A DNA stretch of 64,000 bases from Actinophytocola sp. (lineage in GTDB: Bacteria > Actinomycetota > Actinomycetes > Mycobacteriales > Pseudonocardiaceae): the NCBI RefSeq assembly GCF_035634895.1, contig NZ_DASQCC010000100.1:333-64332 (forward strand), given 5' to 3'. Positions within the stretch are counted from its first letter, which is position 1. Every line of letters begins with the position of its first letter. This document shows positions 6,096 through 36,222 of this stretch, one piece after another. The notes beneath the pieces were generated by a model. The model was not told the DNA's origin, searched no databases, and was given only the letters and a program-made list of their open reading frames with translations. The position numbers were made by a program, and so were the translations under genes.

Positions 6096-6917
6096 CTAGA
6101 GTCCCAGCTCGGTGTCGGTCGCGAGCCTGCGCAGCTGCTCGACGGACACCGGGATGGTCTCCTTGGTGAGCTTCGGGCCGCCGCTGAGCGCGTAGTTGTA
6201 CGCGGCGGCCTCGACCGCGGCACCGTCGCGCCGGAGGTGGTAGACGGCCGAGATCTTCCCGCCGGCCACGAACCCGCCCAGGTCCTGGTCCACGGCCATG
6301 AGCACGCCGCCGTCCTGCTCGCCGATCTTTCGGCAGGTGCCCTCCGAGCACGCCGTGTCGACCAGGTCGTTCGCGCCACCGGGCACCCATGTCTGGACCA
6401 GGATCGAGTACCGGACGCCGTCGATGGTGAAGTCGATGGCGCCGTTCACGTTCGTCTGGCCCTCGTAGTACTCACCGGTGGCCTCGCCGCCGAACTCGGA
6501 GACCTCGATCTCCGACGCGTTGGGCAGCACGGAAGGCATGATCTCCCGCAGGTGCGCCGCCATGTCCGTGCCACGCGCACGCAGCTTGTCGATCGGGAAC
6601 TGGACCGGCGTGACGTCCTTGGCCGGCCACTGGATCCGAGACGGCGACGGGGACGTCTCGGACCCGGTGGCCGTCGACTCGGTGGTCGTGGCCGGCCCCT
6701 GGCCCGCCTCCACCTGCGACGACAGGCGGCCCAGCGCGACCGGCAGCGCCACGGCCGCCACCGCGACCGCCACGGTCGCCACGCCGACCCCCATCAGCGC
6801 GCGGCGCCGCCTGACCTGCTGACGCGCGGCCGCGACCAGCACGTCCGGGTCGAAGTCGAGCGGCGGCTCCTCGGCGACGGCGTCCCGCATACCGCCGCGC
6901 ACGTCTTCCTCACTCAT
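6096..6917 (-). CDS. membrane-anchored partner of ECF sigma factor (putative anti-sigma / regulatory protein)
   Basis: ATG 6917 overlaps the sigma gene stop (ATGA). Charged N-terminus, a single TM (VGVATVAVAVAAVALPVAL), a Ser/Thr/Pro linker and a ~190-aa extracytoplasmic domain. Confidence 0.6.
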   Translation of the reverse strand: MSEEDVRGGMRDAVAEEPPLDFDPDVLVAAARQQVRRRRALMGVGVATVAVAVAAVALPVALGRLSSQVEAGQGPATTTESTATGSETSPSPSRIQWPAKDVTPVQFPIDKLRARGTDMAAHLREIMPSVLPNASEIEVSEFGGEATGEYYEGQTNVNGAIDFTIDGVRYSILVQTWVPGGANDLVDTACSEGTCRKIGEQDGGVLMAVDQDLGGFVAGGKISAVYHLRRDGAAVEAAAYNYALSGGPKLTKETIPVSVEQLRRLATDTELGL

Positions 6918-7438
6918 GACGCGACCCTCCCCATCAGTTCCGACACACAGGTCCGCAGCGATTCGAGGCCGCGGGCCGACTGGCTCTTGACCGTGCCCTC
7001 CGAGCAGGCCATGACGTCGGCCGTCTCGGCGACGGACAGGTCGTCGAAGTAGCGAAGGACCAGCACGGCGCGTTGCCGGGGCGGCAGGCGCAGCAGGCCC
7101 TGGTGGACGAGGTCGCGGGCCCACAGCCGCTCCGGGCTGTCGGCCGGGCCGCGTCCCTCGTCGTGGCGTTCCGGGACCTCGGCGGCCGACTGCTCGGACC
7201 GCCGCCACGGCCGGCGCTTCTCGTCCAGCCAGGTGCGCAGCAGGACCGTGCGGCTGTAGTTCGAGAGGCTCTCGTCCTTCTCGACCCGCGTCCACGACCG
7301 GTAGATCTTGATCAATGTGGTCTGCATCAGGTCCTCCGCGAGGTGCCAGTCACCGCAGTACAGGTACGCCGACCTGCGCAGTCGGGCGGCGTGCTCGACC
7401 GCGAACCGGCGAAAGCTCTCCTCGTCGGACTGTCGCAT
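6914..7438 (-). CDS. SigE-family ECF RNA polymerase sigma factor
   Basis: SAYLYCGDWHLAEDLMQ (region 2), PPRQRAVLVLRYFDDLS and CSEGTVKSQSARGL (region 4). ATG 7438 has an AAGGGGG RBS and aligns with the N-terminus of the paralog at 8871-9389. The alternative ATG 7477 overlaps the TetR stop (TGATG). Confidence 0.85.
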   Translation of the reverse strand: MRQSDEESFRRFAVEHAARLRRSAYLYCGDWHLAEDLMQTTLIKIYRSWTRVEKDESLSNYSRTVLLRTWLDEKRRPWRRSEQSAAEVPERHDEGRGPADSPERLWARDLVHQGLLRLPPRQRAVLVLRYFDDLSVAETADVMACSEGTVKSQSARGLESLRTCVSELMGRVAS

Positions 7439-7476
7439 GGGCCCCCTTTCGCCCATTACCCACGACGCGATGCCCA

Positions 7477-8064
7477 TCAGGGTTGCAAGGACTCGCGGAG
7501 CATCCGTTTCGCGACCGCGCGGGGGTCCGGGTTCACCTCGATCAGCGCGTTGACCACGGCGCCGTCCACCAGCGCGATGAGGTGCTCGATGCGTCGCTCG
7601 TCGACCGGGACGCCCGAGCGGGCCAGGATCTCGGCGAGCAGCGCCCGCAGCTCGACGCCGAGCGTGCGCATCAGTGGGCGCAGGTAGGGGCGGCGGAACG
7701 TCGCCACCAGGCGCTCGTACCGCAGCAGCACCAGCTCGGCGTCCCGTTCGCCGGCCGGCGAGCCGAGCAGCTGGTCGAGCACGAGGTCGATGACGGACTC
7801 GAGGTCGCGCCGCTCGGCGGGGAGCGCCTCCAGCAGCTCACGGCCGCGGACCAGCTCGGCCCTGGCGTGGTGCTCGACCGCGGCCGTCATCAGCTCGTCC
7901 AGCGAGTCGAAGTAGTACGTGGTGGACGCCAGCGGCAGGCCGGCGCGCTCGGCGACGGCCCGGTGCCGGACGGCGTCGAAGCCGCCCTCGACCAGCAGCG
8001 CCGCCGCGGCCGCCACGAGCGACTGGCGACGCCGCTCGCCTTTGGGGGTGCTGGCGGCCGTCAT
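7477..8064 (-). CDS. TetR/AcrR family transcriptional regulator
   Basis: N-terminal HTH (FDAVRHRAVAERAGLPLASTTYYF) and an all-helical C-terminal domain, 195 aa. Confidence 0.85.
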   Translation of the reverse strand: MTAASTPKGERRRQSLVAAAAALLVEGGFDAVRHRAVAERAGLPLASTTYYFDSLDELMTAAVEHHARAELVRGRELLEALPAERRDLESVIDLVLDQLLGSPAGERDAELVLLRYERLVATFRRPYLRPLMRTLGVELRALLAEILARSGVPVDERRIEHLIALVDGAVVNALIEVNPDPRAVAKRMLRESLQP

Positions 8065-8100: not shown

Positions 8101-8874
8101 TCAGTAGATTCTGGCGATGTCCCTGGCGAAGCGGGACAGGTCCGCCTCGTACGGCGCGGCGTCACCCGCGCTCGCCGGCTCGCTCACCACGAGCACCTGC
8201 CGGCCGTCGCTCGTGGGCGCGAGGGCCTGGGCGCTGCCGGAGCTGGCCGCGGTGAAGGCCGTGTCACTGGCAGACACGAGAAGGACGTTGAGCCGGCCTT
8301 CCGGAAGGTCGAAAGCGGCGCCCGTGGTGTCGCCGCCGCAGCTCATGGAGACCGGCACGGCATCGTTGGCTTTGATTCCGGCGGCGGCCGGGAGCTCGCC
8401 CGCGAGGGCAGCAGCGAGCTCCCGGTCCACCTGTTCGCACCCACTAGGAGTGCCGGTGGGCCCCGCAGGCCCACCATTCCCATTCGGAGTGCCCCCCTGC
8501 TTGGGCGACCCCGACGGGAAGTCTTCCGCACGCTGACTCTCCGTCGGTGCGGCAGTTTTACCGTCCTCGTTTGGTAACTCGTCTGGAGCAGCGAGTTCGT
8601 TACCGGTTGAAGCGGAAACGCCAGCACTTGCCGAGTCCGAGTACGAACCCTGCCCTGTCCACAATGCCACGCCCAACGCCGTCGCGCCCGCGAGAACCGC
8701 CACACCAAAGGCGGAACCTGCGAGTAACCCGTTCCGGCGACGGGCCCGCTGGCGTTCCGACTCCCTGGTGACGTCGGTCCGCGTGAACGTCGGCGGCGGA
8801 GTGTCCGCGACCGCGTCTTTCAGCAGCTCGGCGAGCTTCTTCTCGTCCATTCCGCCACCTCCTTCCACGCTCAT
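8101..8874 (-). CDS. membrane-anchored partner of ECF sigma factor (putative anti-sigma / regulatory protein)
   Basis: ATG 8874 overlaps the sigma stop (ATGA). Single TM (LLAGSAFGVAVLAGATALGVALW), a low-complexity linker and a C-terminal domain with Cys residues. Same architecture as 6096-6917, but the C-terminal domain is unrelated. Confidence 0.6.
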   Translation of the reverse strand: MSVEGGGGMDEKKLAELLKDAVADTPPPTFTRTDVTRESERQRARRRNGLLAGSAFGVAVLAGATALGVALWTGQGSYSDSASAGVSASTGNELAAPDELPNEDGKTAAPTESQRAEDFPSGSPKQGGTPNGNGGPAGPTGTPSGCEQVDRELAAALAGELPAAAGIKANDAVPVSMSCGGDTTGAAFDLPEGRLNVLLVSASDTAFTAASSGSAQALAPTSDGRQVLVVSEPASAGDAAPYEADLSRFARDIARIY

Positions 8875-9389
8875 GAGGCGGACCTCAGGTCGTCCAGTGT
8901 GCCGCCGAGCGCCGTCCGCAACGCCGTCAGCCCTCTGGCAGTCTGGCTCTTCACGGTCCCTTCCGAGCACTTGAGCGCCTCGGCCGTGGCCGCGACGTCC
9001 AGACCCTCGAGGTACCGCAGGACGAGCACCGCACGCTGCCGCGGCGGGACCGCCCGCAGGCCGGCGAGCAGCGCGGACCTCGTCGCTACGGCGTCGCCGA
9101 TCTCGCCGTCCGTGGACGGCCGGTCCGGCAGTTCCTCGACGAACCGCTCCCGGCGCCACGGGCGCCGGGACTCGTCGATCACCGCGCGCACCAGCGTCCT
9201 GCGGACGTAGGCGTCCAGGGCCCCGCGGTCCCGGATCCTGCGCCATCGCCGGTGCAACGAGACGAACGCGGTCTGCGCGAGATCGTCCGCGCGGTGCCAG
9301 TCACCGCACAGCAGATACGCGGATCTCCGCACGGCGTCTCGCCGAGCCGCGAAGTACTCCGCGAAGTCCTCCTCGTCGCGCTGATCCAC
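8871..9389 (-). CDS. SigE-family ECF RNA polymerase sigma factor
   Basis: SAYLLCGDWHRADDLAQ, PPRQRAVLVLRYLEGLD and CSEGTVKSQTARGL. Clear paralog of 6914-7438. Confidence 0.9.
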   Translation of the reverse strand: MDQRDEEDFAEYFAARRDAVRRSAYLLCGDWHRADDLAQTAFVSLHRRWRRIRDRGALDAYVRRTLVRAVIDESRRPWRRERFVEELPDRPSTDGEIGDAVATRSALLAGLRAVPPRQRAVLVLRYLEGLDVAATAEALKCSEGTVKSQTARGLTALRTALGGTLDDLRSAS

Positions 9390-10848: not shown

Positions 10849-11991
10849 TCAGGGTGTGAGCCACTCACCCAGCCGTTCCAGGGCCGCCTCGACGTCCTGG
10901 GTCGGACCCGCGAAGGAGAACCGGACGAAACGCGTGCCCAGCGCGGGGTCGAAGTCGACGCCGGGGACGATCGCGACGCCGGTCTCGGCGAGCAGGCGCT
11001 GGCACCAGGACATGGTGTCGGTGGTCAGGTGGGACACGTCGGCGTAGGCGTAGAACGCGCCGTCGACCGGGGCGACCCGGTCGATGCCCAGCTTGGCGAG
11101 GCCGGTGACCAGCAGGTCGCGGTTGACCCGGTAGTGGTCGACGTGGGCGTCGAGCTCCGCGTACTGGAAGGCGGCGGTCGCGGCGTGCTGGGCGAGGGTC
11201 GGCGGGCAGAGCGTGAAGTTGCCGGTCAGGCAGTCGACGGCGCGCAGCAGGCGCCGCGGCACGAGGAGCCAACCGAGCCGCCAGCCGGTCATGGCGAAGT
11301 ACTTGGAGAACGAGTTGACCACGATGGCCTCGCGGGAGAACTGCCATGCCGAGGCCGGCGGGTCGGCCAGGTACGAGATGCCGTGGTAGATCTCGTCGCT
11401 GACCAGCTGCACGTCGTGGTCGGCGCACCAGCCGGCGATGGCGGCGAACTCGCCGGTGGGCAGGACCGTGCCGGTCGGGTTGGCCGGGGACGCGATGATC
11501 AGGCCGTCGAGCCTTCCCGCTCGTGCCAACATGTCGACGGTGGGTTGGAAGCGGGTCTCGGGACCGCAGGGCAGCTCGACGACCTCGCAGCCCAGGGTCC
11601 TGAGGATGTTGCGGTAGGCCGGGTAGCCGGGACGGGCCAGGGCGACGCGGTCGCCGGCGTCGAAGGCCGCGAGGAAGGCCAGCAGGAAGCCGCCGGACGA
11701 GCCGGTGGTGGCGACGACGTCGCTCGGGTCGACGTCGAGGGCGTACCTCTGGTCGTAGTGGTGGGCGATCGCCTCGCGCAGCTCGGGGATGCCGAGCTGC
11801 TCGGTGTAGCCGAGGTAGCCGTGGAGCGACTCGGCCGCCCTGTCGAGAACGGCGCGTGGTGCCGCGGCCGACGGTTGCCCGGCGGCCAGCGACACCACGT
11901 CCCCCTGTGCGCGCTGCCGGGCGTTGGCCGCGGACAGCACGTCCATCACGTGGAAGGGTGGGATGTTTGCGCGAGCGGCGACGTTCAGCAT
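10849..11991 (-). CDS. class I/II pyridoxal-phosphate-dependent aminotransferase
   Basis: SFSKYFAMTGWRLGW (PLP-Lys) and ASPANPTG. ATG 11991 has an AAGGGTGG RBS; GTG 12000 is an alternative. Confidence 0.9.
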   Translation of the reverse strand: MLNVAARANIPPFHVMDVLSAANARQRAQGDVVSLAAGQPSAAAPRAVLDRAAESLHGYLGYTEQLGIPELREAIAHHYDQRYALDVDPSDVVATTGSSGGFLLAFLAAFDAGDRVALARPGYPAYRNILRTLGCEVVELPCGPETRFQPTVDMLARAGRLDGLIIASPANPTGTVLPTGEFAAIAGWCADHDVQLVSDEIYHGISYLADPPASAWQFSREAIVVNSFSKYFAMTGWRLGWLLVPRRLLRAVDCLTGNFTLCPPTLAQHAATAAFQYAELDAHVDHYRVNRDLLVTGLAKLGIDRVAPVDGAFYAYADVSHLTTDTMSWCQRLLAETGVAIVPGVDFDPALGTRFVRFSFAGPTQDVEAALERLGEWLTP

Positions 11992-12002
11992 GGTCACCAC
12001 CC

Positions 12003-13445
12003 TTACACGGCCGCGGGCACCAGCTCCTCCTCCTGTGCGACCTTCGGTTGGCGCAACACGGTGACCGCGAGTACGACCCCCAAGGCGACGAGCCCGGCGG
12101 CGATGCCGAACGCGAGGTGGAAACCGCTGGTCACCGCCTCGGTCCGGCCGATGCCCTCGGCGAGCAGCCCGTTGGTGTGAGCCGTTGCCACCGTGGCGAG
12201 GACGGCGAGCCCGAGCGCGCCACCGACCTGCTGGGTGGTGTTGACCAGGCCGGACGCGACGCCGGAGTCGTCCCTGGTGGCGTCGGACATGGCGAGGGTC
12301 ATCATCGCGGGGAAGCCGAGGCCGGCGCCGATGCCCAACAGCGTGACCGCGGGGAAGACGTCGGCGAGGTAGCCGGCGTCCACGGGCGCGCGGGTGAACA
12401 GGACAAGGCCGGCCGTGACGAGGACGAGCGCCGCCACCAGGACGTTCCGTTCCCCGAAGCGGGCGTTGACCCGCGCGGAGACACCGAGCGACAGCCCGCC
12501 GATGCCGACGGCGACGGGCAGGAACCCGAGGCCGATCTGGAGTGGGTCGTAGTGCAGGACCTTCTCCAGGTAGAGGGCGCCGAGGAAGAACATGCCGAAC
12601 ATGCCGGCGACCAGGAGGACCTGGATGAGGTTGGCGCCCGCGACGTTGCGGCTGCGGAGGATGCGCAGGGGCAGGAGCGGGTTCGCGCTGGTGGCCTGGC
12701 GGGTGACGAAGCCGGCGAGGAGTGCCACGGACGCCGCGCCGACGAGGAGCGTGTGGGCGGAGCCCCAGCCGTAGTCGGCGGCCTTGACGATCGTGTAGAC
12801 GCCGAGCATGAGACCGGTGGTGACGAGGAGGGCGCCGAGGACGTCCGCGCCTTCCTTCAGTCCGATGCCCTGCTCGCCGGGGACCCTCCGGACGGCCAGC
12901 AAGGTGGTGAGGACGCCGATCGGCACGTTGACGAAGAAGATCCAGTGCCAGCTGATGGCCTCGGTCAGCACGCCGCCCGCGAGGAGGCCGATCGAACCGC
13001 CGGCCGCCGCGACGAAGCTGAACACGCCGATCGCCCTGGCCTGCTCCCCCCTGCCGGGAAACATGGTGACGATCATGCCGAGAATGACGGCGGCGGCCAT
13101 CGCGCCACCGACCCCCTGGACGAACCGCGCGGCGATGAGCAGTCCCTGTGTGGTGGCGAGGCCGCAGAGCAGCGAGGCGGCGGTGAAGACCGCGATGCCG
13201 CCGAGAAACATGCGCTTGCGACCGACGAGGTCCCCGGTCCGGCCGGCGAGGAGAAGGAGACCGCCGAAGGGGATGAGGTATGCGTTGACCACCCAGGCAA
13301 GCCCCGACTGGGAGAAGCCGAGGTCAGCCTGGATGACGGGCAGCGCGACGTTGACGATGGTGCCGTCGAGAATGATCATCAACATCCCGGCGCACAACAC
13401 GACGAGCGCGAACCACCTGGAGTCGCGCCTTTCGTTCTGGGACAT
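12003..13445 (-). CDS. MFS transporter, DHA2 (EmrB/QacA-like, 14-TM) family
   Basis: 480 aa, many TM segments, an LPVIQADLGFS-type DHA2 N-terminal motif and an AGRTGDLVGRKR loop. Confidence 0.9.
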   Translation of the reverse strand: MSQNERRDSRWFALVVLCAGMLMIILDGTIVNVALPVIQADLGFSQSGLAWVVNAYLIPFGGLLLLAGRTGDLVGRKRMFLGGIAVFTAASLLCGLATTQGLLIAARFVQGVGGAMAAAVILGMIVTMFPGRGEQARAIGVFSFVAAAGGSIGLLAGGVLTEAISWHWIFFVNVPIGVLTTLLAVRRVPGEQGIGLKEGADVLGALLVTTGLMLGVYTIVKAADYGWGSAHTLLVGAASVALLAGFVTRQATSANPLLPLRILRSRNVAGANLIQVLLVAGMFGMFFLGALYLEKVLHYDPLQIGLGFLPVAVGIGGLSLGVSARVNARFGERNVLVAALVLVTAGLVLFTRAPVDAGYLADVFPAVTLLGIGAGLGFPAMMTLAMSDATRDDSGVASGLVNTTQQVGGALGLAVLATVATAHTNGLLAEGIGRTEAVTSGFHLAFGIAAGLVALGVVLAVTVLRQPKVAQEEELVPAAV

Positions 13446-13584
13446 GTGGAGCCGCCTCCTGAGCGTTCAAGTACAGGAGAGACCGTAGCAGATAGTCCCG
13501 AAGCGGACGATCCAGTGTGGGATTGCCTACATCGAGACGAATCTGAGGACACACGTCTCCCACGTCCGCAAGGGGGACCCCTGG

Positions 13585-13615
13585 TTCCACACTATCGGCA
13601 GGCACCGACAAAAAC
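13585..13615 (+). repeat. intergenic repeat module, copy 3 (TTCCACACTATCGGCAGGCACCGACAAAAAC)
   Basis: Aligns with 1219-1249 (about 23 of 29 positions). Preceded by GGGGGACCCC. Lies in the 370-nt MarR-MFS gap. Confidence 0.6.
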
Positions 13616-13816
13616 GGGGCCCGAGCTGCACGAACGGACCGTTCGCGCGGACGACATCGAAAAAGTCTCCATTCGCGCGGCGCCACGGACCGGTGCGCGG
13701 TTCGCCGCGCGTTGACCTGATGCGGCGGTACTCGCGGGCGGTCTCTTGCGGCGGCACCGGCATGAACCGCGACCCGTTGACCACGGCGGTGCGCAGGCGG
13801 GACGGCGCCGTGTGGG

Positions 13817-14263
13817 TCACATGCGACGGCGGGGTGGGCGTTGGCAGGCGACCGGTGTGGAAAGGCGGCCCTCCACCAGGCGGGTCAGGCCGGCCACGAA
13901 GCCCTCGCGTTCACCGTCCGGCAGCGCCGCCAGAACGTCCTCGTGCACGCGGGACACCACGTCCTTCGCCGAGGCGTGGACCTTCCGGCCCAGCTCCGTC
14001 ACCACGATGATCCGCGCGCGGCGGTCCGTCGCCGAGGTCTGGCGTTCCACCAGCCCGGCCTTCTCCAGCTCGTCGATGGTGACGACCATCGTCGTCTTGT
14101 CCAGTTCGCAGATCTCGGCCAGCTGGATCTGCGTCCGCTCGCCGGCCTGCGCCGCGGACAGCACGCAGCTGGCCCGCGGCGTGATCCCGAGGCCGGCCAG
14201 CTCCGCGGTCAGCTCGGTCGACAACACGTGACTGGCGTGGGAGAGCAGGAACGAGAGATCCAT
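13817..14263 (-). CDS. MarR family transcriptional regulator
   Basis: Winged-HTH core TQIQLAEICELDKTTMVVTIDELEKAGLVERQTSATDRRA. Lies upstream of, and co-oriented with, the MFS gene. Confidence 0.9.
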   Translation of the reverse strand: MDLSFLLSHASHVLSTELTAELAGLGITPRASCVLSAAQAGERTQIQLAEICELDKTTMVVTIDELEKAGLVERQTSATDRRARIIVVTELGRKVHASAKDVVSRVHEDVLAALPDGEREGFVAGLTRLVEGRLSTPVACQRPPRRRM

Positions 14264-14317
14264 GTCGGCCAGGTTACGCCGATAGGTCTGTCAGCAGATA
14301 ATCCCGTGACGAACCAA

Positions 14318-15469
14318 TCAGTACCCGACGTACGAGCCGCCCGAGGCCGTGGCCTTGATGCCGGGCACGTTGCCCAGCGACCCGTACCTGGAGATCGCGT
14401 AGTTCACGCCGGCGCAGATGTTGTCCACCGGGTTCCAGATGTCGCCGTGGCCCGGCAGCTTGTACGAGTTGAACGTCGGGTCGATGCACTGCATCAACCC
14501 CTTCGACGGCGTGCCCTTCGCGGCGTTCGAGTCCCAGTTGTTGATCGCGTGTGGGTTGCCGCCCGACTCGTGCTGGATGATCTGCCAGATCCGCTGGGCG
14601 TCCGCCTCGCTGACGTTGATGCCCTGCTTGCGCAGCTCCTCGATGGCTTGCTTGATCCACTCCTGCACGTTCCCGGGAGGCGGGCCCCCCGCGGGCGGGC
14701 CACCGGACGAGCCCATGCCACCGCCACCGCCACTGAAACCGCCGCCACCGCCCCCACCGCCGCCGCCATGTGACGAGCCGCCGGAGTGGGCGGCGGTCTG
14801 CTGGACCGGCTCCTGGGTCTGGGTCGCGTTCGCGTTCGCCGGGGCCGTCTGCGCCTCCGGCGTCTCCTTCCACGTGACCGGCTGACCCGACTGCGGGCTG
14901 AACGGCTGCGTGTTCGGCTGTGGCAGCGTGGAGAACCTGGTGGCCGGTGACTTGCTCGCGTTGATCGTCCCGAGCGACGCGCTGAGTGTCTGCTCGGTGC
15001 TCTGGAGGTGGCTGTCGATGTCCCCGGCCGCGCTCTGGCACACCCGCGTGGTCATGGCGTCGAAGTCCGCCGTCGACGCCTTCGGGTTGTTGGTGGTCCA
15101 CGTCCGGATCTCGGTGAGCGCCTGGTCGCAGCGGGTCGAGATGTAGCTCTGCGCGCCGGTGATGGCGCCTGCGGCGTTCGTGAGCGCGGTCGCGGCGTTC
15201 GACATGGCCGTGCCGACGTCCGAGCCCGCGGTCTTGAACTTGTTCATGTACCCGACGAACTCGTCCGCGGACGTGCCCTCCCACGCCGCGTCGAGCTTGG
15301 TGACCGCGCCCGCCACCTCGCCGCTGTACGTCGAGACGTTCGTCGCGGCCATGGACAGCTTGCTCGCGGCCGTGGTGACCGCCGAGGCGTCCGCGTCCTT
15401 GATCTTCGCCACGGCCGTGGCGACGACACCGCCACCCGCGTAGCCCGCCAGCGTCTCCGCCGAACCCAC
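14318..15469 (-). CDS. WXG100-like N-terminal domain fused to a lytic transglycosylase (SLT) domain
   Basis: GTG 15469 with an AGGAGGGG RBS. The N-terminal ~180 aa are helical with LDAAWEGTSADEF (W-x-G). A Gln/Pro-rich segment is followed by HGGGGGGGGGGFSGGGGGMGSSGG. The C-terminus has IIQHESGGNPHAINNWDSNAAKGTPSKGLMQ (SLT catalytic Glu-Ser and GLMQ motifs). Confidence 0.8.
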   Translation of the reverse strand: MGSAETLAGYAGGGVVATAVAKIKDADASAVTTAASKLSMAATNVSTYSGEVAGAVTKLDAAWEGTSADEFVGYMNKFKTAGSDVGTAMSNAATALTNAAGAITGAQSYISTRCDQALTEIRTWTTNNPKASTADFDAMTTRVCQSAAGDIDSHLQSTEQTLSASLGTINASKSPATRFSTLPQPNTQPFSPQSGQPVTWKETPEAQTAPANANATQTQEPVQQTAAHSGGSSHGGGGGGGGGGFSGGGGGMGSSGGPPAGGPPPGNVQEWIKQAIEELRKQGINVSEADAQRIWQIIQHESGGNPHAINNWDSNAAKGTPSKGLMQCIDPTFNSYKLPGHGDIWNPVDNICAGVNYAISRYGSLGNVPGIKATASGGSYVGY

Positions 15470-15487
15470 CGTCGTCCCCTCCTAGAC

Positions 15488-15811
15488 CTACACGTAGTGG
15501 GGTTGCCCCTGCCCGTACCGGTGCTGCCCCTCGTCCTCGACGTTCTGGACGGTCCGCAGTACCGCGTCGAGCGCGCCAGCCACCCCGTTCAACCGGTTCT
15601 CGGCGGCGTCGAACTCGTCATGCATGACGTCGTTGAGCGAGTCGAGCGCGGAGGCCAGCCCCGCGGAACTCGGCAGCTTGCCGAACGTGCTCGCCGACGT
15701 CGTGGCCGTGCCCCCGTCGGGAAACGAGTCGGAGACCGAGCCGAACTTCGGCTTGTAGTCCTGTGCCTTCGAGATGAGGCCGTTGATGGCGTCGATGTTG
15801 TACTGCGTCAT
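15488..15811 (-). CDS. small helical protein, EspC/DUF2580-like ESX-associated candidate
   Basis: ATG 15811 with an AAGGGGTGGG RBS, 107 aa. The pattern TFGKLPSS..L..L......F..AE..L..V..AL..VLRTVQNVEDE resembles ESX-1 secretion-associated (EspC-like) proteins. Recognition is weak. Confidence 0.45.
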   Translation of the reverse strand: MTQYNIDAINGLISKAQDYKPKFGSVSDSFPDGGTATTSASTFGKLPSSAGLASALDSLNDVMHDEFDAAENRLNGVAGALDAVLRTVQNVEDEGQHRYGQGQPHYV

Positions 15812-15877
15812 GTCCCACCCCTTCGCACCCCGTCCGACGGCCACGAGCCAGCCGCGGTTCCCTCAACTTTATGCCGG

Positions 15878-16645
15878 TCAGACCTCGGCCATCAGCTCTT
15901 CGACACAGCTCGCGAGGCGGCGTCCGTCGGCCGGCGTGACGGTGCTCCACATGCGGCCGTCGTTGTTCGCCCTGGCGAGATGGACATACCGCCCGTTCGG
16001 CGTGTCGTGGAAGGCGACGACCCGGTCGGCGCGGAGCATCCGCTGGTCGCGCTGCATGCGGGTGACGCCGAACTGGCCGCGCACGTTCATGTCGCGCACC
16101 ATGTCGGCCATCGTCTTCGCGTCCTTGCCCGCGACACCCCGCCCGGTCAGCTCGGCCGCGAGCAACCGCACGTCACCACGAGCCTCGGCGTCCGCGGCGA
16201 CGAGCACGTCGGTCGGCACGCTGACCGACAGCCCCGGCCCGGCGACCACGTCCCCCGCGATCGACACGGCGGCGTCGGCGATGGCGGTCTCGCGTGCGGG
16301 AATGAGCCAGACCTCGGGCCCGTCGACGGCGGCGAGCAGCGCGGTATGGCCCGCGACGACCGCGAGCGAGGAGATGCGGTGGTCGGTCCACACCCAACTG
16401 TCGATGGAGAGTTGGTGGTGGGCAAGCAGGTTCAGCTGGTCGACGAGCTCGGGCACGGCCCGGTCGCGCTTGGCGAGCCCACGCGCCTCGAGATCGTCGA
16501 ACGCCTTGCGGACCAGCTGGCGACGTTCGGTGTGGGTGCGGCCCGGGCTCGGCACCGTGAGCGCCTCATGTTTTGCCGGGAGCCCTTCGGACTCCCAGAG
16601 CACGTCGAACTCGAGCTTGGAGAGGACGATGCTGCCCCTGCTCAT
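15878..16645 (-). CDS. EspG family ESX secretion-associated chaperone-like protein
   Basis: The N-terminus LSKLEFDVLWESEGLPAKHEALTVPSPGRTHTERRQL matches the characteristic start of actinobacterial EspG-family proteins. The start codon abuts the PPE-like gene stop (0-nt gap). Confidence 0.7.
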   Translation of the reverse strand: MSRGSIVLSKLEFDVLWESEGLPAKHEALTVPSPGRTHTERRQLVRKAFDDLEARGLAKRDRAVPELVDQLNLLAHHQLSIDSWVWTDHRISSLAVVAGHTALLAAVDGPEVWLIPARETAIADAAVSIAGDVVAGPGLSVSVPTDVLVAADAEARGDVRLLAAELTGRGVAGKDAKTMADMVRDMNVRGQFGVTRMQRDQRMLRADRVVAFHDTPNGRYVHLARANNDGRMWSTVTPADGRRLASCVEELMAEV

Positions 16646-17836
16646 CTACCCCTCATCGTCATCCCCGATGGACTCCGGCGCGACGACCCGCTCGTCGTCG
16701 AACACGTCGCTCGACTCGACACCGTAGCGGCGAACGTGCTCCAGGTCCTCCTCGCCCTCTTCCTTCCGGCCGGCGGCCGCCGGCTGCATGAGCGAGCTGC
16801 CGGGCCGGCCGCTCTTGGCACCGAACCGCTCGGCGTTGCGCGCGGCACGGGCCTCCTCTTCCGGCGCGGTACCAAGGGGAGTGCCGTTCTTGACCGGCCC
16901 GCGGTTGGCCGTGTTACGAGAGAGGCGTTCCTCCTCTGCGCCCGCGCCGGCACCCGTGGCGCCACCGGTCCCGATGGCGGTGGCGGCGTCGGCCATGAGC
17001 AGGGGGTTGGCCGCGGCGCGAAGCGCGGCCGGGAAAGGAGCGGCGGTGTTCGGGAAGGAGGGGGCGCTGGGGAGCGGGCCGCCGCCGGTGATGGGTCCGG
17101 TGCCGACGGGCGGATTGCCGCCGGGGGTGGGGATGGGGCTGGTGCCGCCACCACCCGGTGCTCCGGGAACGAAGCCGGTCGACCCGCCCGGCGCGCCACC
17201 GGCGGGGTTGAAGTTGCCACCCGGGTTGAAAGTGCCGACGGAGGACATGTGCGTGCTGGTGTCGACGGGCTGGGCGTTGAGGTTCATGCCGGGCGGGACG
17301 GGGAGCGCCTGGGACCTGCCGAGGGCGTCGGAACTGCTGGACTGGTAGCCGTTCATGGCGTCGACGGCCTGCTGCCGGGAGGCGTTCGTGTCCTTGACCT
17401 GTTGGGCGTGGTCGGTCGTGTGACCGAGGAAGCCCATGAACTGGTCGAAGCCGTTCTCGTCGGTGGGGCCGTTGAGCGAGCCCGCGTCCGGGGCATTGTT
17501 CTTGCCGGTGGAGAAAGCGGCGCCCTGGGAGTCGACACCCTTGGCGGAGTTGTCGACCGGGCCCTGGGACTGGTCGGCGTAGATGCTCGCGTCCTTGGTG
17601 GCAGACGTGCCACCGTCAGCCGCCTCACCCTGCCAGGTGACGCCGATGTCAGCGAGTTGCTGACGAAGCGCGGCATCCGTGTCGGAAAGGCCGTCGGAGA
17701 GCTTCATCAACGCCGTGACCGCGCTGTAGAGCGTGGAAGGGCCAGGTCCGTTACGCAGCCCGGTCACCTGCTCGGCGAGCGCGTGGTTGTCGTATCCGTC
17801 GAAACGCAGGTTACTGAGTCCGTGGTCCCCGGCCAT
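16646..17836 (-). CDS. PPE-like domain protein with Gly/Pro-rich C-terminal region
   Basis: AAGGAAG RBS. The N-terminal ~180 aa carry FDGY..L...V....GPGP, VTWQGEAAD (W-x-G) and AVDAMNGY, mirroring the PPE helical domain. The C-terminus is Gly/Pro/Ala low-complexity with an acidic tail. Confidence 0.65.
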   Translation of the reverse strand: MAGDHGLSNLRFDGYDNHALAEQVTGLRNGPGPSTLYSAVTALMKLSDGLSDTDAALRQQLADIGVTWQGEAADGGTSATKDASIYADQSQGPVDNSAKGVDSQGAAFSTGKNNAPDAGSLNGPTDENGFDQFMGFLGHTTDHAQQVKDTNASRQQAVDAMNGYQSSSSDALGRSQALPVPPGMNLNAQPVDTSTHMSSVGTFNPGGNFNPAGGAPGGSTGFVPGAPGGGGTSPIPTPGGNPPVGTGPITGGGPLPSAPSFPNTAAPFPAALRAAANPLLMADAATAIGTGGATGAGAGAEEERLSRNTANRGPVKNGTPLGTAPEEEARAARNAERFGAKSGRPGSSLMQPAAAGRKEEGEEDLEHVRRYGVESSDVFDDERVVAPESIGDDDEG

Positions 17837-17846
17837 AGCTACTTCC

Positions 17847-18467
17847 TTACCTCATGGTCTGCAGTGTCTGCAGCGCCATCTCGGCCGCTTCCTTGCCACC
17901 CTGGCAGATGGCATCCCCGGTGATGTCGTCGCTGATCGGTTCCATCTCGACATGCAGATGCTGGTTCTTCGCTACGCCGACCGCGATGGCGCATTCGTGC
18001 TTTCCGCCACCCAGGAGGTGGAACTGGGCCGCCGGATAGCCGCCGACAGAGATCAACTTGACGTCGGCGTTGTGTGGTTCATTGATCCACCACGCCACGT
18101 CGACGTTCGTGACAGCGATCACGCTGTAGCTGATGAATGGCTCCTCGGCATCCTTGTCGAGAGTGCAGTTCTTCATGTCCTTGTAGATCGTCCCGGCATC
18201 GCCGCCGTCATCGGGGGTGACCTCGTTGATCTGCAGATCCGATCGCTGGGCTGTCGTGAACAGCGTGCACGGGTCGATGCCGTCGAGTGAGAGGTCCCGA
18301 GGTGGAGGCGGGACGTCCACCGAGGAAGTGCTCGGATTGCCGGTCGAAGTCGAACCGCCACCGGCCGTGGAAGAGTCGGAGGTCGCGCTGCCAGCCTGGC
18401 TGACCGTGCATCCCGCCACAAGGGCCACAGCCGCGACCACGGGGAGCAGGATCGACTTCCTACGCAC
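17847..18467 (-). CDS. DUF3558-like lipoprotein
   Basis: Lipobox LVAGC after VRRKSILLPVVAAVA, a Ser/Thr-rich linker, then DPCTLFTTAQRSDL...C...GYPAAQF...C...C. Candidate starts are GTG 18467, TTG 18479 or the ORF maximum 18530. Confidence 0.6.
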   Translation of the reverse strand: MRRKSILLPVVAAVALVAGCTVSQAGSATSDSSTAGGGSTSTGNPSTSSVDVPPPPRDLSLDGIDPCTLFTTAQRSDLQINEVTPDDGGDAGTIYKDMKNCTLDKDAEEPFISYSVIAVTNVDVAWWINEPHNADVKLISVGGYPAAQFHLLGGGKHECAIAVGVAKNQHLHVEMEPISDDITGDAICQGGKEAAEMALQTLQTMR

Positions 18468-18858
18468 CCTTTTTCCCAAAAGCCGTGGCGATCTGGTCCT
18501 CGGTGTAGCCATAGGTCTTGGCTGCGTCACCCAACTGGACTGCCAGCTTCTTCAGGCCCAGGACGTATTCCCTGATCCGCGTGTCGTAGGAGTCGTCGTT
18601 GTCGACGAGGACCTCGTTCCATGCCTTCGCCATACGGATGCTCACGTCGTCAGTGCCCGGCGGCTGGATACGAAGGTCGTGTCTGCGTTCTTGCCACACC
18701 TTCTGGAGGGCGTCAGCCTGGGACTCGACGATGCGGCCGGCGGCCAGGACGTTGTCCCTTGTCACTGTGAAGGTGCCGGACGTGATGGCCGCAGTCGCCT
18801 TGTTGAGCTTGGTGAAGGCGGTATCGACGCCGCTGGCTATGTCGCCGGCGAGGTACAT
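18460..18858 (-). CDS. PE-like small helical secretion-substrate candidate
   Basis: ATG 18858 with a GGGGAG RBS (GTG 18873 is an alternative), 132 aa. PPGTDDVSIRMAKAW resembles the PE core ..ADEVSAAIAALF. The C-terminal helix ends in AAKTYGYTED (YxxxE). Confidence 0.45.
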   Translation of the reverse strand: MYLAGDIASGVDTAFTKLNKATAAITSGTFTVTRDNVLAAGRIVESQADALQKVWQERRHDLRIQPPGTDDVSIRMAKAWNEVLVDNDDSYDTRIREYVLGLKKLAVQLGDAAKTYGYTEDQIATAFGKKGA

Positions 18859-18981
18859 CTCGTCGCTCCCCACTCTTCGTGACGGGCCGGTCTCTTTCCG
18901 CAGGTTACCAATGCCGCGCAGGACTCACCTGAACTTTGACGAAGAAGTGGCACTACCGGTTCCGCTGATTGGCTGAACCCG

Positions 18982-20238
18982 TTACGGAGCGGTGACCTCG
19001 CCCTTGGCCGCGCGTGCCGCGATGTCCGTCCGGTGGTGCGAGCCCGCCAGGTGGACCTCGTCCACTCGCCGGTACGCGTCCTCGCGGGCCTCCGTCAGGG
19101 TCTCGCCCGTGCCCACCACCGACAGGACGCGACCACCAGCGGACACGATCGCGCCGTCGTCGCGGCGGCGGGTGCCCGCGTGGAGGACGGCGTGGGCCTC
19201 GGCGCCGGTGATCACGTCGCCCGCGCGGGCTCGTGCGGGGTAGCCCTCGGCGGCGACCACCACCGTCACCGCGTAACCGTCGCTCCACTCCAGGGGTGGG
19301 TATGCCGCCAGGGTGCCCGTCGCGGCGGCGTTCAGTAGGCCGGCTATGGGGGTGCGGAGCAGGGGCAGGACAACCTGCGTCTCCGGGTCGCCGAAGCGGC
19401 AGTTGAACTCGATCACCTGCGGGCCGTCGCTCGTCAGTGCCAGGCCCGCGTACAGGAGGCCGGAGAACGGGGTGCCCCGCGCCGCCAGCTCGTCGACCAC
19501 CGGTTGGATGATCTTCGCCAGCACGTCCTTGACCATGCCGGGTGGTGCCCATGGCAGCGGGGCGTACGCGCCCATGCCGCCCGTGTTCGGGCCGGCGTCG
19601 TCGTCGCCGACGCGCTTGAAGTCCTGCGCGGGCACCAGTGGGACGACCGTCGTGCCGTCGACCACGCAGAACAGGGACGCCTCGGGGCCGTCCAGGAACG
19701 ACTCCAGCAGCACGGGGTGGCCGCCGTCCAGGAGGGTCATGGCGTGGGTGCGAGCCGCCGCTCGGTCGCTCGTGACCAGGACACCCTTGCCCGCGGCCAG
19801 GCCGTCGTCCTTGACGACCCAGGTGGGGCCGAAGTGGGCCAGGGCCGCGTCCAGCTTGGCCGGGTTGTCGACGATCTCGCTCTGGGCGGTCGGCACGCCG
19901 GCGGCGGCCATGACCTCCTTGGCGAACGCCTTCGAGCCCTCGATGCGGGCCGCCTCGGTGGACGGGCCGAAGCACGCGATGCCGGCCGCGCGCACGGCGT
20001 CGGCGGCACCCGCTACCAGCGGCACCTCCGGGCCGACGACGACCAGATCGGCGTCCCACTCCGTGGCCCGCGCGGCGATGGCCGCGGGGTCGGCGACGTC
20101 GACACCGTAGGACTCGGCGACGGCCGCCGTGCCCGCGTTGCCGGGGGCGCACGCCAGCGCCGTCACCGTGGGGTCGTGAGACAGCGCGAGCACCAGCGCG
20201 TGCTCACGCGCACCGGACCCAATCACCAGTACACGCAC
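18982..20238 (-). CDS. purD: phosphoribosylamine--glycine ligase
   Basis: GTG 20238 gives [23 protein letters not shown]-grasp motifs ([20 protein letters not shown]). The upstream ORF extension is junk. Confidence 0.95.
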
Positions 20239-26893: not shown

Positions 26894-27034
26894 GGCGCGA
26901 GCCCCGGCGCTCACAGTCCTGCCGGACCACTGCTGATCCCTTTGGACCACAACGAAAGTCGGCAATTCGCCGAGGTCATTGCCCTGCCGGCCAACGGTGT
27001 CGCATCGTCGATGCACTCTACTCAGGAGGGCACG

Positions 27035-27661
27035 ATGTCGGGGAAAGCTTTTGTCGGCGCGGTGTTGCTGGCCGCCGGGGCCGTGATCGGGCTCGGCGGT
27101 GCGGCTCAGGCGACTCCACCGGGTATCCCTTCGGCGGGTACCGCTCGGACCGAGCTGGCGGCGCTCACGGTAGCGCCGGACGGCTCCATGGACGGCTACG
27201 ACCGGGACCGGTTCCCGCACTGGCACAGCGTCGAAGGTGCTTGCAACACAAGGGAGATGGTGCTCCAGCGGGACGGCGACGGGGTCGAGACGGGCAGCGA
27301 CTGCGCGCCGACGTCCGGGAGCTGGACCAGTCCGTACGACGGGGACACCTGGACCCAGGCGTCCGATGTGGACATCGACCACATGGTCCCGCTCGCGGTC
27401 GCGTGGCGGTCCGGTGCGTCGAGCTGGACGACGGCCGAGCGTGAGGCGTTCGCCAACGACCTGAACTCGCCGCAGCTGTGGGCGGTCACGGACAACGTGA
27501 ACCAGGAGAAGAGCGACCAGACGCCGGACGAGTGGAAACCGCCACTGGAGTCGGAGTGGTGTGAGTACGCGCGGGCCTACACGCACGTGAAGTACCTCTA
27601 CGAGCTGACGGTCGACTCGACCGAGGAGGGCGCGCTAGCCGACATGCTCGCGACCTGCTGA
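27035..27661 (+). CDS. secreted DUF1524 / HNH (His-Me finger) nuclease family protein
   Basis: ATG 27035 after CAGGAGGG. Signal peptide AVIGLGGAAQA. DRDRFPHW, DIDHMVPLAVAWRSGA and NQEKSDQTPDEW match the DUF1524 motif pattern. Confidence 0.7.
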   Translation: MSGKAFVGAVLLAAGAVIGLGGAAQATPPGIPSAGTARTELAALTVAPDGSMDGYDRDRFPHWHSVEGACNTREMVLQRDGDGVETGSDCAPTSGSWTSPYDGDTWTQASDVDIDHMVPLAVAWRSGASSWTTAEREAFANDLNSPQLWAVTDNVNQEKSDQTPDEWKPPLESEWCEYARAYTHVKYLYELTVDSTEEGALADMLATC

Positions 27662-34329: not shown

Positions 34330-34920
34330 GTGCCTGGGGAACTCAGTGCGGAACGCAGCGTCGAGCAGACGCTCGGTCATCTGCGTGCGATCGACACGGG
34401 GAGCTTCCCCGTGCCCACAGCGCCCGTCCAGCAGGCGCCGCTGACCCTCGAGGACCTGTATCGCACACATCGCATGCGTCTCGTCCGGCTCGCGTTGCTG
34501 CTGGTAGACGAGCCGGCGACGGCCGAGGACGTCGTGCAGGAGGCGTTCACCGGGCTGCACCGCAACTGGGGCAACCTCCGCGACGCCGCCGCGGCCCTCG
34601 GCTACCTGCGCACCGCCGTGGTCAACGGGTCGCGGTCCGTGCTGCGCCGCCGCAAGACCGCCCGCGAGTACACCCCGCCGCACCAGGTCAACGCGCGGTC
34701 CGCGGAGAGCCTCGCGATGCTGACGGCCGAGCACCAGGGGGTCGTGCGCGCGTTGTCGCAGCTGCCGCCCCGCCAGCGCGAGGTACTGGTGCTGCGTTAC
34801 TACGGCGACCTGTCCGAGGCGGAGATCGCCGAGGCCGCCGGCATCTCCAAGGGGACGGTCAAGTCGACGGCCAGCCGGGCCCTGGACGCGCTGCAGAAGA
34901 TCATGCGCACCCCTAACTGA
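34330..34920 (+). CDS. SigE-family ECF RNA polymerase sigma factor (no adjacent partner gene)
   Basis: RLALLLVDEPATAEDVVQEAF, PPRQREVLVLRYYGDLSEAEIA and ISKGTVKSTASRAL. Confidence 0.85.
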   Translation: MPGELSAERSVEQTLGHLRAIDTGSFPVPTAPVQQAPLTLEDLYRTHRMRLVRLALLLVDEPATAEDVVQEAFTGLHRNWGNLRDAAAALGYLRTAVVNGSRSVLRRRKTAREYTPPHQVNARSAESLAMLTAEHQGVVRALSQLPPRQREVLVLRYYGDLSEAEIAEAAGISKGTVKSTASRALDALQKIMRTPN

Positions 34921-35067: not shown

Positions 35068-36222
35068 ATGGCTGCGCAGCTCATCAGCGGGGGACGGGTC
35101 GCCACGCCGGATGGCGTGCTCGACCCGGGCTGGTTGCTCGTCGACGACGGCCGGATCACCGCGCTCGGCAGCGGTGAGCCACACTTCCGCCCCGGTACGA
35201 CAGTCACCGACGCCTCGGGCAGTTGGGTGGTTCCCGGCTTCGTCGACATCCACTGCCACGGTGGTGGCGGCGCCGCGTTCACCAGCGCGGATCCCGCCCA
35301 CGTGCGGCAGGTCGTCGACTCGCACACCGCGCACGGCACCACGACGATGCTCGCGAGCCTGGTCACGCGGCCGGTGAGCGAGCTGGTCGAGCAGGTCGCG
35401 GCCCTGGCCGAGCTGGTCCAGGAGGGCCTGGTCGCGGGCATCCACCTCGAGGGGCCGTTCCTGTCGGCGGCCCGCTGCGGCGCACACGACCCGGTGTTGC
35501 TCAGGCCTCCTGACCCGGTCTCGGTGGACGCGCTGCTGTCGGCCGGCCGCGGCACGATCCGGATGGTGACCGTCGCGCCCGAGCTGGAAGGTGCGGTCCC
35601 CGCGGTCAAGCGGCTGGTCGACGCCGGTGTGCTCGCGGCGATCGGCCACACGGACGCGCTGGCCGAGGACGTCGTGCCGGCGGTGGACGCGGGCGCGACC
35701 GTGGCGACGCACCTGTTCAACGGCATGCGGCCGCTGCACCACCGCGAGCCGGGTCCGATCGGCGTGCTGCTGGACGACGAGCGGGTGACGGTCGAGCTGA
35801 TCTGCGACCTCGTGCACCTGCACCCGACGATCGTGCGGCTGGCCGCCCGGCACGCGGGCGCCGCCCGCACCGTGTTGATCACCGACGCGATCGCGGCCGC
35901 GGCGGCCGGCGACGGGACCTACGACATCGGCGGGCTGAAGGTCGACGTGACGAACGGCGTGCCGACGCTGGCGGACGGCGGTTCGCTCGCGGGCAGCACG
36001 CTGACCATGGACGCGGCGTTCCGGAACCTGGTGAAGAGCTGCGGGCTGGGCGTGCTCGACGCGGTGGCGGCGGCGTCCACGCGACCAGCCGCCCTGCTCG
36101 GCCTCGGCGACGTGACCGGCAGGCTGGCCCCCGGGTTCGCGGCCGATGTCGTCTTGTTGGACGACGCGCTGCGCCCGGTGTCGGTGATGCGGCGAGGCGA
36201 GTGGGTACCTTCTGGTACGTGA
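35068..36222 (+). CDS. nagA: N-acetylglucosamine-6-phosphate deacetylase
   Basis: PGFVDIHCHGGGG, IHLEGPF, GHTDA and THLFNGM metal-ligand motifs, 384 aa. Confidence 0.93.
   Translation: MAAQLISGGRVATPDGVLDPGWLLVDDGRITALGSGEPHFRPGTTVTDASGSWVVPGFVDIHCHGGGGAAFTSADPAHVRQVVDSHTAHGTTTMLASLVTRPVSELVEQVAALAELVQEGLVAGIHLEGPFLSAARCGAHDPVLLRPPDPVSVDALLSAGRGTIRMVTVAPELEGAVPAVKRLVDAGVLAAIGHTDALAEDVVPAVDAGATVATHLFNGMRPLHHREPGPIGVLLDDERVTVELICDLVHLHPTIVRLAARHAGAARTVLITDAIAAAAAGDGTYDIGGLKVDVTNGVPTLADGGSLAGSTLTMDAAFRNLVKSCGLGVLDAVAAASTRPAALLGLGDVTGRLAPGFAADVVLLDDALRPVSVMRRGEWVPSGT

Follow-up and report, generated by a model that had tools for sequence, protein, structure and literature searches.

A six-gene PE-like/PPE/EspG cassette with a DUF3558 lipoprotein and a WXG100-transglycosylase fusion in Actinophytocola

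Six genes between purD and a marR-MFS pair

A stretch of 64,000 nucleotides (nt) of an Actinophytocola sp. genome (contig NZ_DASQCC010000100.1; the whole stretch is called the window below) carries a cassette of six minus-strand genes, which encode a PE-like protein, a DUF3558 lipoprotein, a PPE protein, an EspG protein, a small protein of 107 residues (h107) and a fusion of a WXG100 domain to an SLT lytic transglycosylase domain (Table 1). The six open reading frames (ORFs) are tightly packed over positions 14318-18858, with spacings of -8, +10, 0, +66 and +18 nt; purD lies upstream, and a marR-MFS pair follows the fusion gene on the same strand. The ORF coordinates thus agree with the initial annotation of this DNA, in which six minus-strand genes spaced by -8 to +66 nt were placed between these flanks, and the host, Actinophytocola, agrees with its proposal of a filamentous actinomycete rather than a Mycobacterium. 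All reading frames of the cassette are intact, their third-position GC is 0.78-0.95, and GC content is flat over the cassette compared with its surroundings.

EspG matched the Pfam model ESX-1_EspG (PF14011) from end to end (model positions 1-245 of 245; 212 bits, E=1.3e-62), and its start codon directly abuts the PPE stop codon. It is therefore a full-length, PPE-adjacent EspG, and it does not lie inside an esx locus (EccB/C/D/E and MycP genes are absent from the 64-kb window and from 10 kb of flanking DNA). The PPE protein matched Pfam PPE (PF00823) over residues 27-173 (6.6e-8, 33.2 bits, cut-off 26); in the PDB this domain matched PPE4 (6uuj_B, E=4e-4). The domain carries a WxG motif (TWQG), and family model and motif together place the protein among the PPE proteins, although its N-terminus, MAGDHGLSNLRFDGYDNHALAEQ, has no Pro-Pro-Glu. 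A Gly/Pro-rich variable linker follows the N-terminal domain. At the C-terminus lies an acidic motif that has no Pfam or PDB match and is conserved in the window and in all six related loci described below, including those of Qaidamihabitans and Prauserella. The PPE-like and EspG-like labels of the initial annotation were confirmed by these matches, and the motifs that it listed (DDVSIRMAKAW, YGYTE, NGPGP, TWQGEAAD and AMNGY) are all present.

The PE-like protein, a 'hypothetical protein' in the NCBI annotation, scored 17.5 bits against Pfam PE (PF00934), where the cut-off is 22 (E=0.0053); 16 of its 18 orthologues matched this model at E<0.1, the best at 4.7e-6. In the alignment of the 18 orthologues, the block PPGxDDVS...AWN and the residues Y116xxxE120 are invariant. 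The orthologue profile retrieved PE25 first from the PDB (E about 0.01-0.02), followed by EspB, and aligned PPGxDDVS with PPAADLVS and YGYSE with YATAE of PE25. AlphaFold2 predicted a helical hairpin (predicted local distance difference test, pLDDT, 79) and an extra low-confidence N-terminal helix. The top five Foldseek matches of this model in the PDB were PE25 chains (target TM-score 0.78-0.82, root-mean-square deviation 2.4-3.1 Å, probability 1.00), with WXG100 proteins ranked below them, and the predicted fold is the helix-turn-helix hairpin of PE25 with YxxxD/E at the end of the second helix. The N-terminus reads MYLAGDIASGVDT, with no Pro-Glu. On the basis of profile, motif and predicted fold we accept this protein as a distant PE relative, and it is in this sense that the label PE-like holds.

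A GTG overlapping the stop codon of the PE-like gene (GTGCGTAG) serves as start codon of the DUF3558 gene, and the N-terminus of the DUF3558 protein, RRKSILLPVVAAVALVAGC, includes the lipobox LVAGC; the metagenome gene call is 157 residues long, and the lipoprotein signal is thereby cut away. The protein matched Pfam DUF3558 (PF12079) at 7.4e-24 (85 bits, cut-off 34), and with its lipobox it is the DUF3558 lipoprotein that had been annotated. Among the six proteins it is the only one that begins with a hydrophobic signal-peptide segment. Signal peptide and lipobox are followed by a disordered Ser/Thr/Pro linker and an alpha/beta domain, and the lipobox cysteine, C67, C101, C159 and C188 are invariant in 30 relatives. 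In the AlphaFold2 model the core (pLDDT >90) is an antiparallel sheet on which a long C-terminal helix packs. Foldseek found nothing at E<0.001; weak matches to DcrB, type VI Eag chaperones, PsbP and LpqN (E of at least 0.003, TM-scores of at most 0.44) give a hint of the fold class.

In the fusion protein, a Gly-rich linker joins an N-terminal domain of the WXG100 type (AAWEG) to a family-1 lytic transglycosylase domain at the C-terminus. As annotated initially, both domains are present, each above its Pfam cut-off: WXG100 (PF06013) at residues 26-104, with the WxG turn (2.6e-8, 34.4 bits, cut-off 27.3), and SLT (PF01464; 2.8e-11, 43.4 bits, cut-off 21.3). The N-terminal domain matched ESAT-6 in the PDB (E=6e-4), with AAWEG aligned to AAWGG. 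The SLT domain, a predicted enzyme, keeps the catalytic-type HESGGNP, and its segment IIQHESGGNPHAI aligned to IIAIESGGNPNAV of Escherichia coli EmtA. The two genes do not encode a free-standing WXG100 pair of about 100 residues each: the WXG100 domain heads a much longer fusion, and h107 has no WXG100 match. The initial label of h107, EspC-like, is unsupported, because searches with h107 and with five orthologues gave only noise: h107 matched nothing above noise level in Pfam, NCBIfam or the PDB sequences, EspC (PF10824) was matched by one of the five orthologues (E=0.021) and not by h107 itself, and the profile of the five orthologues retrieved only coiled-coil noise from the PDB. The h107 gene always lies beside the fusion gene and the two are lost or decayed together; h107 is a probable partner of the fusion.

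The range of enzymes attached to such N-terminal domains was examined by an exhaustive search with residues 1-200 of the fusion, which gave 77 representative clusters, 62 of which were scanned with Pfam. WXG100 was found in 61 of the 62, SLT in 31, a hydrolase N-terminal helical domain in 8, NlpC/P60 in 7, and CHAP, Amidase_5 and phage tail lysozyme in one each. All enzyme domains matched are peptidoglycan hydrolases, and no nuclease, deaminase, pore-former or other toxin domain was found among the 62 relatives. The LXG model matched one of them and did not match the window fusion. No candidate immunity gene follows the fusion gene, the next gene being marR or, in other genomes, an aminotransferase gene.

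The fusion orthologue of Qaidamihabitans albus (11113-13353) is 746 residues long, with an intein-like insert inside the SLT domain. The insert lies between HAINNWD and SNAAKGTPSKGLMQC, starts with CVPLDTMILTRRGW, ends with ...FLTGN and contains a LAGLIDADG_3 domain (1.1e-5). A decayed copy, still joined to the C-terminal piece of the SLT domain, is found in a second lineage, in CAWGVZ010000014.1 (10925-11930), which belongs to a metagenome-assembled genome (MAG). Inteins are unusual in secreted wall hydrolases; splicing would have to precede export.

Table 1. Positions of the cassette, its promoters and other features in the window (aa, amino acids; ECF, extracytoplasmic function)
Feature	Position	Strand	Length	Description
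PE-like gene	18460-18858	-	132 aa	distant PE-family helical hairpin (predicted), C-terminal YxxxE
DUF3558 lipoprotein gene	17847-18467	-	206 aa	Pfam DUF3558 and lipobox
PPE-like gene	16646-17836	-	396 aa	Pfam PPE
EspG gene	15878-16645	-	255 aa	Pfam ESX-1_EspG
h107 gene	15488-15811	-	107 aa	no family assignment
WXG100::SLT fusion gene	14318-15469	-	383 aa	Pfam WXG100 and SLT
Acidic motif, PPE C-terminus	16646-16870	-		EEEARAARNAERFG...HVRRYGVESSDVFDDERVVAPESIGDDDE
Promoter P1	18938-18963	-		GGAACCGGTAGTGCCACTTCTTCGTC, GGAACCG-N15-CGTC; ECF-type -35/-10; about 80 nt upstream of the PE-like start
Promoter P2	15836-15861	-		GGAACCGCGGCTGGCTCGTGGCCGTC; ECF-type, motif and spacing of P1; in the 66-nt gap from espG to h107
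Leader blocks	18900-18933	-		TTCAGGT (18927-18933) and TTGGTARCCTGC (18900-18911); between P1 and the PE-like start
marR-MFS pair	12003-14263	-		follows the fusion gene
ECF sigma gene 1	6914-7477	-		TIGR02983
ECF sigma gene 2	8871-9389	-		TIGR02983
ECF sigma gene 3	34330-34917	+		TIGR02983
GmrSD_C-like gene	26942-27661	+		DUF1524-type nuclease, near purA; conserved coding motif DGYDRDRF
Motif match	27191-27215			rejected as promoter; inside the GmrSD_C-like coding sequence
Motif match	35209-35234			rejected; antisense within an amidohydrolase gene

Gene order and promoters in related genomes

The cassette was compared with six loci, from A. oryzae, an Actinophytocola MAG, A. glycyrrhizae, an uncultured-Actinomycetota MAG, Q. 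albus and Prauserella muralis. In all six, which represent at least three genera, purD and the genes for the PE-like protein, DUF3558, PPE and EspG are found in the identical order, and the EspG orthologues, at the same position, are 56-85% identical to that of the window (85% in A. oryzae, 67% in the uncultured-Actinomycetota MAG). The same gene order in six other loci indicates that the cassette is old and vertically inherited. Four genomes (A. oryzae, the Actinophytocola MAG, Qaidamihabitans and Prauserella) have intact h107 and fusion genes; in the Qaidamihabitans and Prauserella fusions the linker and SLT domain are conserved and the N-terminal domain has diverged. The pair is absent in A. 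glycyrrhizae and decayed in the uncultured-Actinomycetota MAG, with the first four genes intact in both. Co-occurrence of all six genes, as initially proposed, therefore stands for the first four (six of six related genomes) and fails for the tail pair, which has its own promoter and is deleted in one genome and decayed in another. In conclusion, the cassette is made of two modules, a stable core of four genes and a dispensable tail of two, and is not one indivisible unit.

In the two closest genomes, identity is 56-64% for the PE-like protein, 42-60% for DUF3558 and 77-85% for EspG and the fusion; it is 85-89% for the flanking genes (purD, aminotransferase, MFS). The PE-like and DUF3558 genes are thus the fastest-evolving of the cassette, and judging from these identities their divergence would fit proteins that are exposed at the surface or engaged in a molecular arms race.

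A mobile-island origin of the cassette was rejected because GC content is uniform, tRNA and mobility genes are absent (there are no mobility genes near the cassette, and tRNA and Rfam scans of the whole window gave no match) and the chromosomal position is identical in at least three genera. The marR-MFS pair was seen only in the window and in two MAGs, which makes it a variable insert outside the cassette; in A. oryzae, A. glycyrrhizae, Qaidamihabitans and Prauserella an aminotransferase gene directly follows the cassette. The window is contained in a 145-kb ENA metagenome contig, k141_1272740, apart from two substitutions and a single G of a homopolymer run at 13572-13576, between marR and the MFS gene; these differences suggest that the same genome was assembled in another way or polished.

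The cassette has two conserved ECF-type promoters that had not been described, P1 before the PE-like gene and P2 before the h107 gene. The boxes of P1 are present in all seven loci (one of them with GGAACCC), and the 15-16 nt spacer varies freely. The conservation of P2 extends to A. oryzae, the Actinophytocola MAG and Prauserella, hence to four loci with the window; its -35 is mutated in the MAG in which h107 and the fusion are decayed, and in Qaidamihabitans the motif is missing and the gap between espG and h107 is short. When the spacing was fixed at N16, the window held three motif matches compared with 0.52 expected: two occupy the promoter-sized gaps of the cassette, on the coding strand, and the third lies antisense within a gene. 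A sigma-70 promoter and terminator scan of positions 13700-19100 found none. Of the two motif matches rejected outside the cassette (Table 1), the one in the GmrSD_C-like gene lies on the strand opposite to the coding one and owes both its existence and its conservation to the coding motif DGYDRDRF.

The -35 heptamer of P1 and P2 is identical to that published for SigM of Mycobacterium abscessus, GGAACCG (PMC13491425). On a Nocardia contig, a weak EspG relative sits in a bona fide PE (4.6e-12)-PPE (1.8e-25)-EspG operon, and GGAACCGATGCCGTCGCCGTCGCGTC is found about 60 nt upstream, with a spacing identical to that of P1 and P2. The -10 of M. tuberculosis SigM, which we take to be approximately GTCCGA, would fit CGTCCGAC and CGTCGGAC. 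The heptamer and its context therefore suggest that P1 and P2 may have SigM-like specificity. The three ECF sigma factors encoded in the window belong to the TIGR02983 'SigE-family' and were all rejected as SigM orthologues, as they scored 66-77 bits against a SigM model cut-off of 190. Behind each of ECF sigma genes 1 and 2 lies a gene of about 250-270 codons that has no Pfam match and possibly encodes an anti-sigma factor, and a near-match to the cassette promoters, GCAACC-N17-CGTC, lies upstream of ECF sigma gene 2.

Both leader blocks between P1 and the PE-like gene are invariant in three genera, and pairing is possible as CAGGU/RCCUG. The main stem has no covariation support because it never varies; the blocks could be a short hairpin or an operator.

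As the initial annotation had stated, there is no ESX core gene in the 64 kb: a Pfam scan of the called ORFs of the window found no FtsK/EccC, EccB, EccD, EccE or subtilase/MycP gene, and no free WXG100 gene or Esx pair. The 10 kb past position 64000 (dnaK, grpE, groES and others) contain no type VII core gene either. Outside the cassette, the window holds housekeeping and regulatory genes, a few of them without a match, including purA, purD, purB, fba, phoD, clpB, dnaJ, hspR, the three ECF sigma genes, a SARP gene and a WhiJ-like regulator gene. A secretion machine for the cassette would have to be encoded elsewhere. A type VII core elsewhere in this genome is plausible, as a survey of nine non-mycolate actinobacterial orders found ESX-4 clusters in every one of them, Pseudonocardiales among them, with two in Saccharopolyspora erythraea (PMC4791881).

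Resemblance to known type VII operons and effectors

Orphan operons for ESX-4 substrates, closely similar in composition, induced by SigM and located outside esx-4, have been reported in M. abscessus (PMC13491425, 2026). They are Mab_1828-1834 (PE, DUF3558, PPE, WXG100, NlpC/P60), Mab_0012c-0010c (PE, DUF3558, PPE) and Mab_0149c-0147c (PE, PPE, EspG); the enrichment of DUF3558 and the recurring hydrolases in the SigM regulon were noted and left unexplained (PMC13491425). The initial annotation considered this type of cassette uncharacterised, which remains true of its function, whereas its architecture was already described in M. abscessus; new here are the lineage of the host, the pair of conserved promoters, SLT as the cargo and what this may imply for the evolution of the system. 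Shared with the M. abscessus operons are the order PE, DUF3558, PPE, small helical protein, wall hydrolase, an EspG beside a PE/PPE pair outside an esx locus, the -35 GGAACCG and an equally uncharacterised function. In contrast, the host belongs to the Pseudonocardiaceae and has no mycolic-acid outer membrane, one cassette includes EspG as well, the hydrolase is SLT instead of NlpC/P60, and there is an internal second promoter. For the Actinophytocola cassette, SigM control and ESX-4 export are putative.

The mycobacterial complexes PE25-PPE41-EspG5 (4KXR, 4W4L) and PE5-PPE4-EspG3 (6UUJ) resemble the first module in the PE25-like model, the PPE4 match, the EspG family, and the WxG on PPE and YxxxE on the PE-like protein. 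They differ from it in that sequence similarity is very low, the N-terminal Pro-Glu and Pro-Pro-Glu are missing from the cassette proteins, the PE-like protein has an extra N-terminal helix, a lipoprotein gene separates the pe-like and ppe genes, and the genes lie outside an esx locus; the complex of the cassette proteins is a putative one.

The second module resembles LXG polymorphic toxins with their small helical Lap partners (type VII secretion system b, T7SSb, of Firmicutes) and CpnT with EsxE/EsxF (mycobacteria): a delivery domain of the WXG superfamily at the N-terminus is joined to an enzyme at the C-terminus, the gene immediately upstream encodes a small protein, and the cargo domain is swapped among relatives. 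The window fusion differs from these systems in having no LXG match, peptidoglycan hydrolases as the only cargo and no adjacent immunity gene.

The cell-wall hydrolase EssH of Staphylococcus aureus has CHAP domains and reaches the wall via the general secretion pathway, whereas the hydrolase of the window would be exported as type VII cargo by virtue of its own WXG100 domain. EssH is reported to be recruited by the T7SSb to enable effector secretion (PMC13059805, 2026); like the proposed role of the fusion, this ties a peptidoglycan hydrolase functionally to a type VII system, where it would open the wall for cargo. In M. smegmatis, conjugation depends on a SigM-induced NlpC/P60 protein of the recipient (Clark et al., 2018, after the summary in PMC13491425). 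As is proposed for the fusion, this protein is a wall hydrolase of a SigM/ESX-4 regulon and would act on the cell's own envelope during cell-cell contact; it belongs to another hydrolase class.

A candidate ESX-4-type cargo set and its origin

From the computed features (protein families and motifs, synteny, conserved promoters and the range of cargo domains) we propose that the cassette is a chromosomal, vertically inherited ESX-4-type cargo set with an own-wall hydrolase, under the control of a SigM-like ECF sigma factor. We give this proposal slightly better than even odds (about 0.55); from the computed features we infer type VII export, the identity of the sigma factor, a PE/PPE/EspG complex, the activity of the enzyme and the wall that it targets. 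An ECF sigma factor with SigM-like specificity would fire P1 and P2. From P1, the PE-like and PPE proteins would be made and pair up, with WxG on PPE and YxxxE on the PE-like protein as the two halves of the secretion signal; EspG would keep PPE soluble and hand the pair to an ESX-4-type machine encoded elsewhere. DUF3558 would be exported separately, by the Sec/lipoprotein route, and would meet the pair at the outer face of the membrane, probably as its partner or anchor. From P2, or by read-through from P1, h107 would be made and pair with the WXG100 domain of the fusion, and the exported fusion would locally cleave the glycan strands of the producer's peptidoglycan, making an opening in the thick wall through which type VII cargo could pass or cells could make contact. 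That the fusion cuts the producer's own wall is most likely, and killing of neighbours less likely, because the cargo consists only of wall hydrolases, no immunity candidate is adjacent and M. smegmatis provides a precedent for action on a cell's own envelope.

Several observations weigh against this proposal. The window and one 10-kb flank contain no EccB, EccC, EccD or MycP gene, and there is no SigM orthologue among the three ECF sigma factors of the window. Several ECF groups use GGAAC...CGTC-like promoters. The PE-like protein of the window is below the Pfam cut-off and has no N-terminal Pro-Glu, and the PPE protein has no Pro-Pro-Glu tripeptide. The h107 and fusion proteins together have no YxxxD/E, so that by the mycobacterial rule their secretion signal is incomplete. 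Finally, swapping of cargo domains is also typical of polymorphic toxins, and the DUF3558 lipoprotein shows two frequent traits of immunity proteins, a location outside the cytoplasm and fast evolution.

The last two points suit an interbacterial weapon, an explanation that we consider less likely, though a serious rival, and in which the fusion is a type VII antibacterial effector directed at competitors' walls, h107 its targeting partner and DUF3558 the immunity protein, with PE, PPE and EspG aiding delivery. The relatives in which SLT, NlpC/P60, CHAP, amidase and lysozyme domains are swapped on one N-terminal domain do resemble polymorphic toxins, DUF3558, predicted to sit on the outer face of the membrane, is encoded by the fastest-evolving gene of the cassette, and close relatives differ by gain and loss of h107 and the fusion; damage to neighbouring cells was also raised for M. 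abscessus (PMC13491425). However, DUF3558 is kept where the effector is deleted (A. glycyrrhizae) or decayed (the uncultured-Actinomycetota MAG), and M. abscessus operons without a listed hydrolase still have DUF3558 between PE and PPE (PMC13491425). Moreover, there is no immunity-type gene beside the fusion, and the usual variety of toxins is absent, wall hydrolases being the only cargo.

It is still more doubtful that the two modules are unrelated neighbours, the PE-like/DUF3558/PPE/EspG genes forming a surface or uptake module and the h107 and fusion genes an independent type VII cargo pair. This would account for the conserved P2 promoter of the pair, for its independent loss with the first four genes intact, and for the M. 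abscessus PE-DUF3558-PPE and PE-PPE-EspG operons that have no hydrolase (PMC13491425). Nevertheless, the adjacency is conserved in at least three genera, and the same order with a hydrolase recurs in Mab_1828-1832 of M. abscessus (PMC13491425). The absence of P2 and the short gap in Qaidamihabitans imply co-transcription of both modules there, and as P1 and P2 share one motif the modules would in any case be co-regulated.

That the cassette is a relic, or that its helical proteins merely resemble type VII cargo and are not exported by a type VII system, or that the genome has no such system, is very improbable: 74 kb without core genes and the weak PE and h107 assignments speak for it, and against it stand the full-length EspG match (1e-62), intact frames with high third-position GC, the conservation of YxxxE, WxG, lipobox and catalytic-type ESGG, which is consistent with selection, promoters conserved between genera and the ESX-4 clusters reported in Pseudonocardiales (PMC4791881).

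The cassette also bears on the origin of these proteins. The acquisition of espG, pe and ppe has been placed on plasmids within the mycolate lineage (PMC4791881, 2016), and the cassette sits uneasily with this timing. As a tentative possibility, for which we would claim rather less than an even chance, an ancient regulon in which a SigM-type ECF sigma factor controls scattered ESX-4-type cargo operons may have been present in the common ancestor of Pseudonocardiales and Corynebacteriales. If this is true, PE/PPE/EspG and DUF3558 would be older than the mycolic-acid outer membrane, in conflict with the model of plasmid-borne gain within the mycolate lineage (PMC4791881); they would at first have acted in a cell with one membrane only, at this membrane or at the wall, and DUF3558 would be the extracytoplasmic receptor of a secreted PE/PPE pair. 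Horizontal transfer into the Pseudonocardiaceae followed by long vertical inheritance is a possible alternative.

The usual view regards EspG and the PE/PPE proteins as inventions of mycobacteria that are linked to the mycolic-acid outer membrane. Pseudonocardiaceae are not known to have mycolic acids, and the cassette, stably inherited beside purD in this family, is a simpler, non-pathogenic setting in which the role of PE, PPE, EspG and DUF3558 can be studied without an outer membrane. The role of the DUF3558 lipoproteins that recur in these operons was flagged as an open question in 2026 (PMC13491425). The promoter motif provides a direct route to the remaining regulon in any Pseudonocardiaceae genome, and the cassette, besides its bearing on the origin of PE/PPE, allows one to ask whether type VII systems export their own wall-cutting enzymes.

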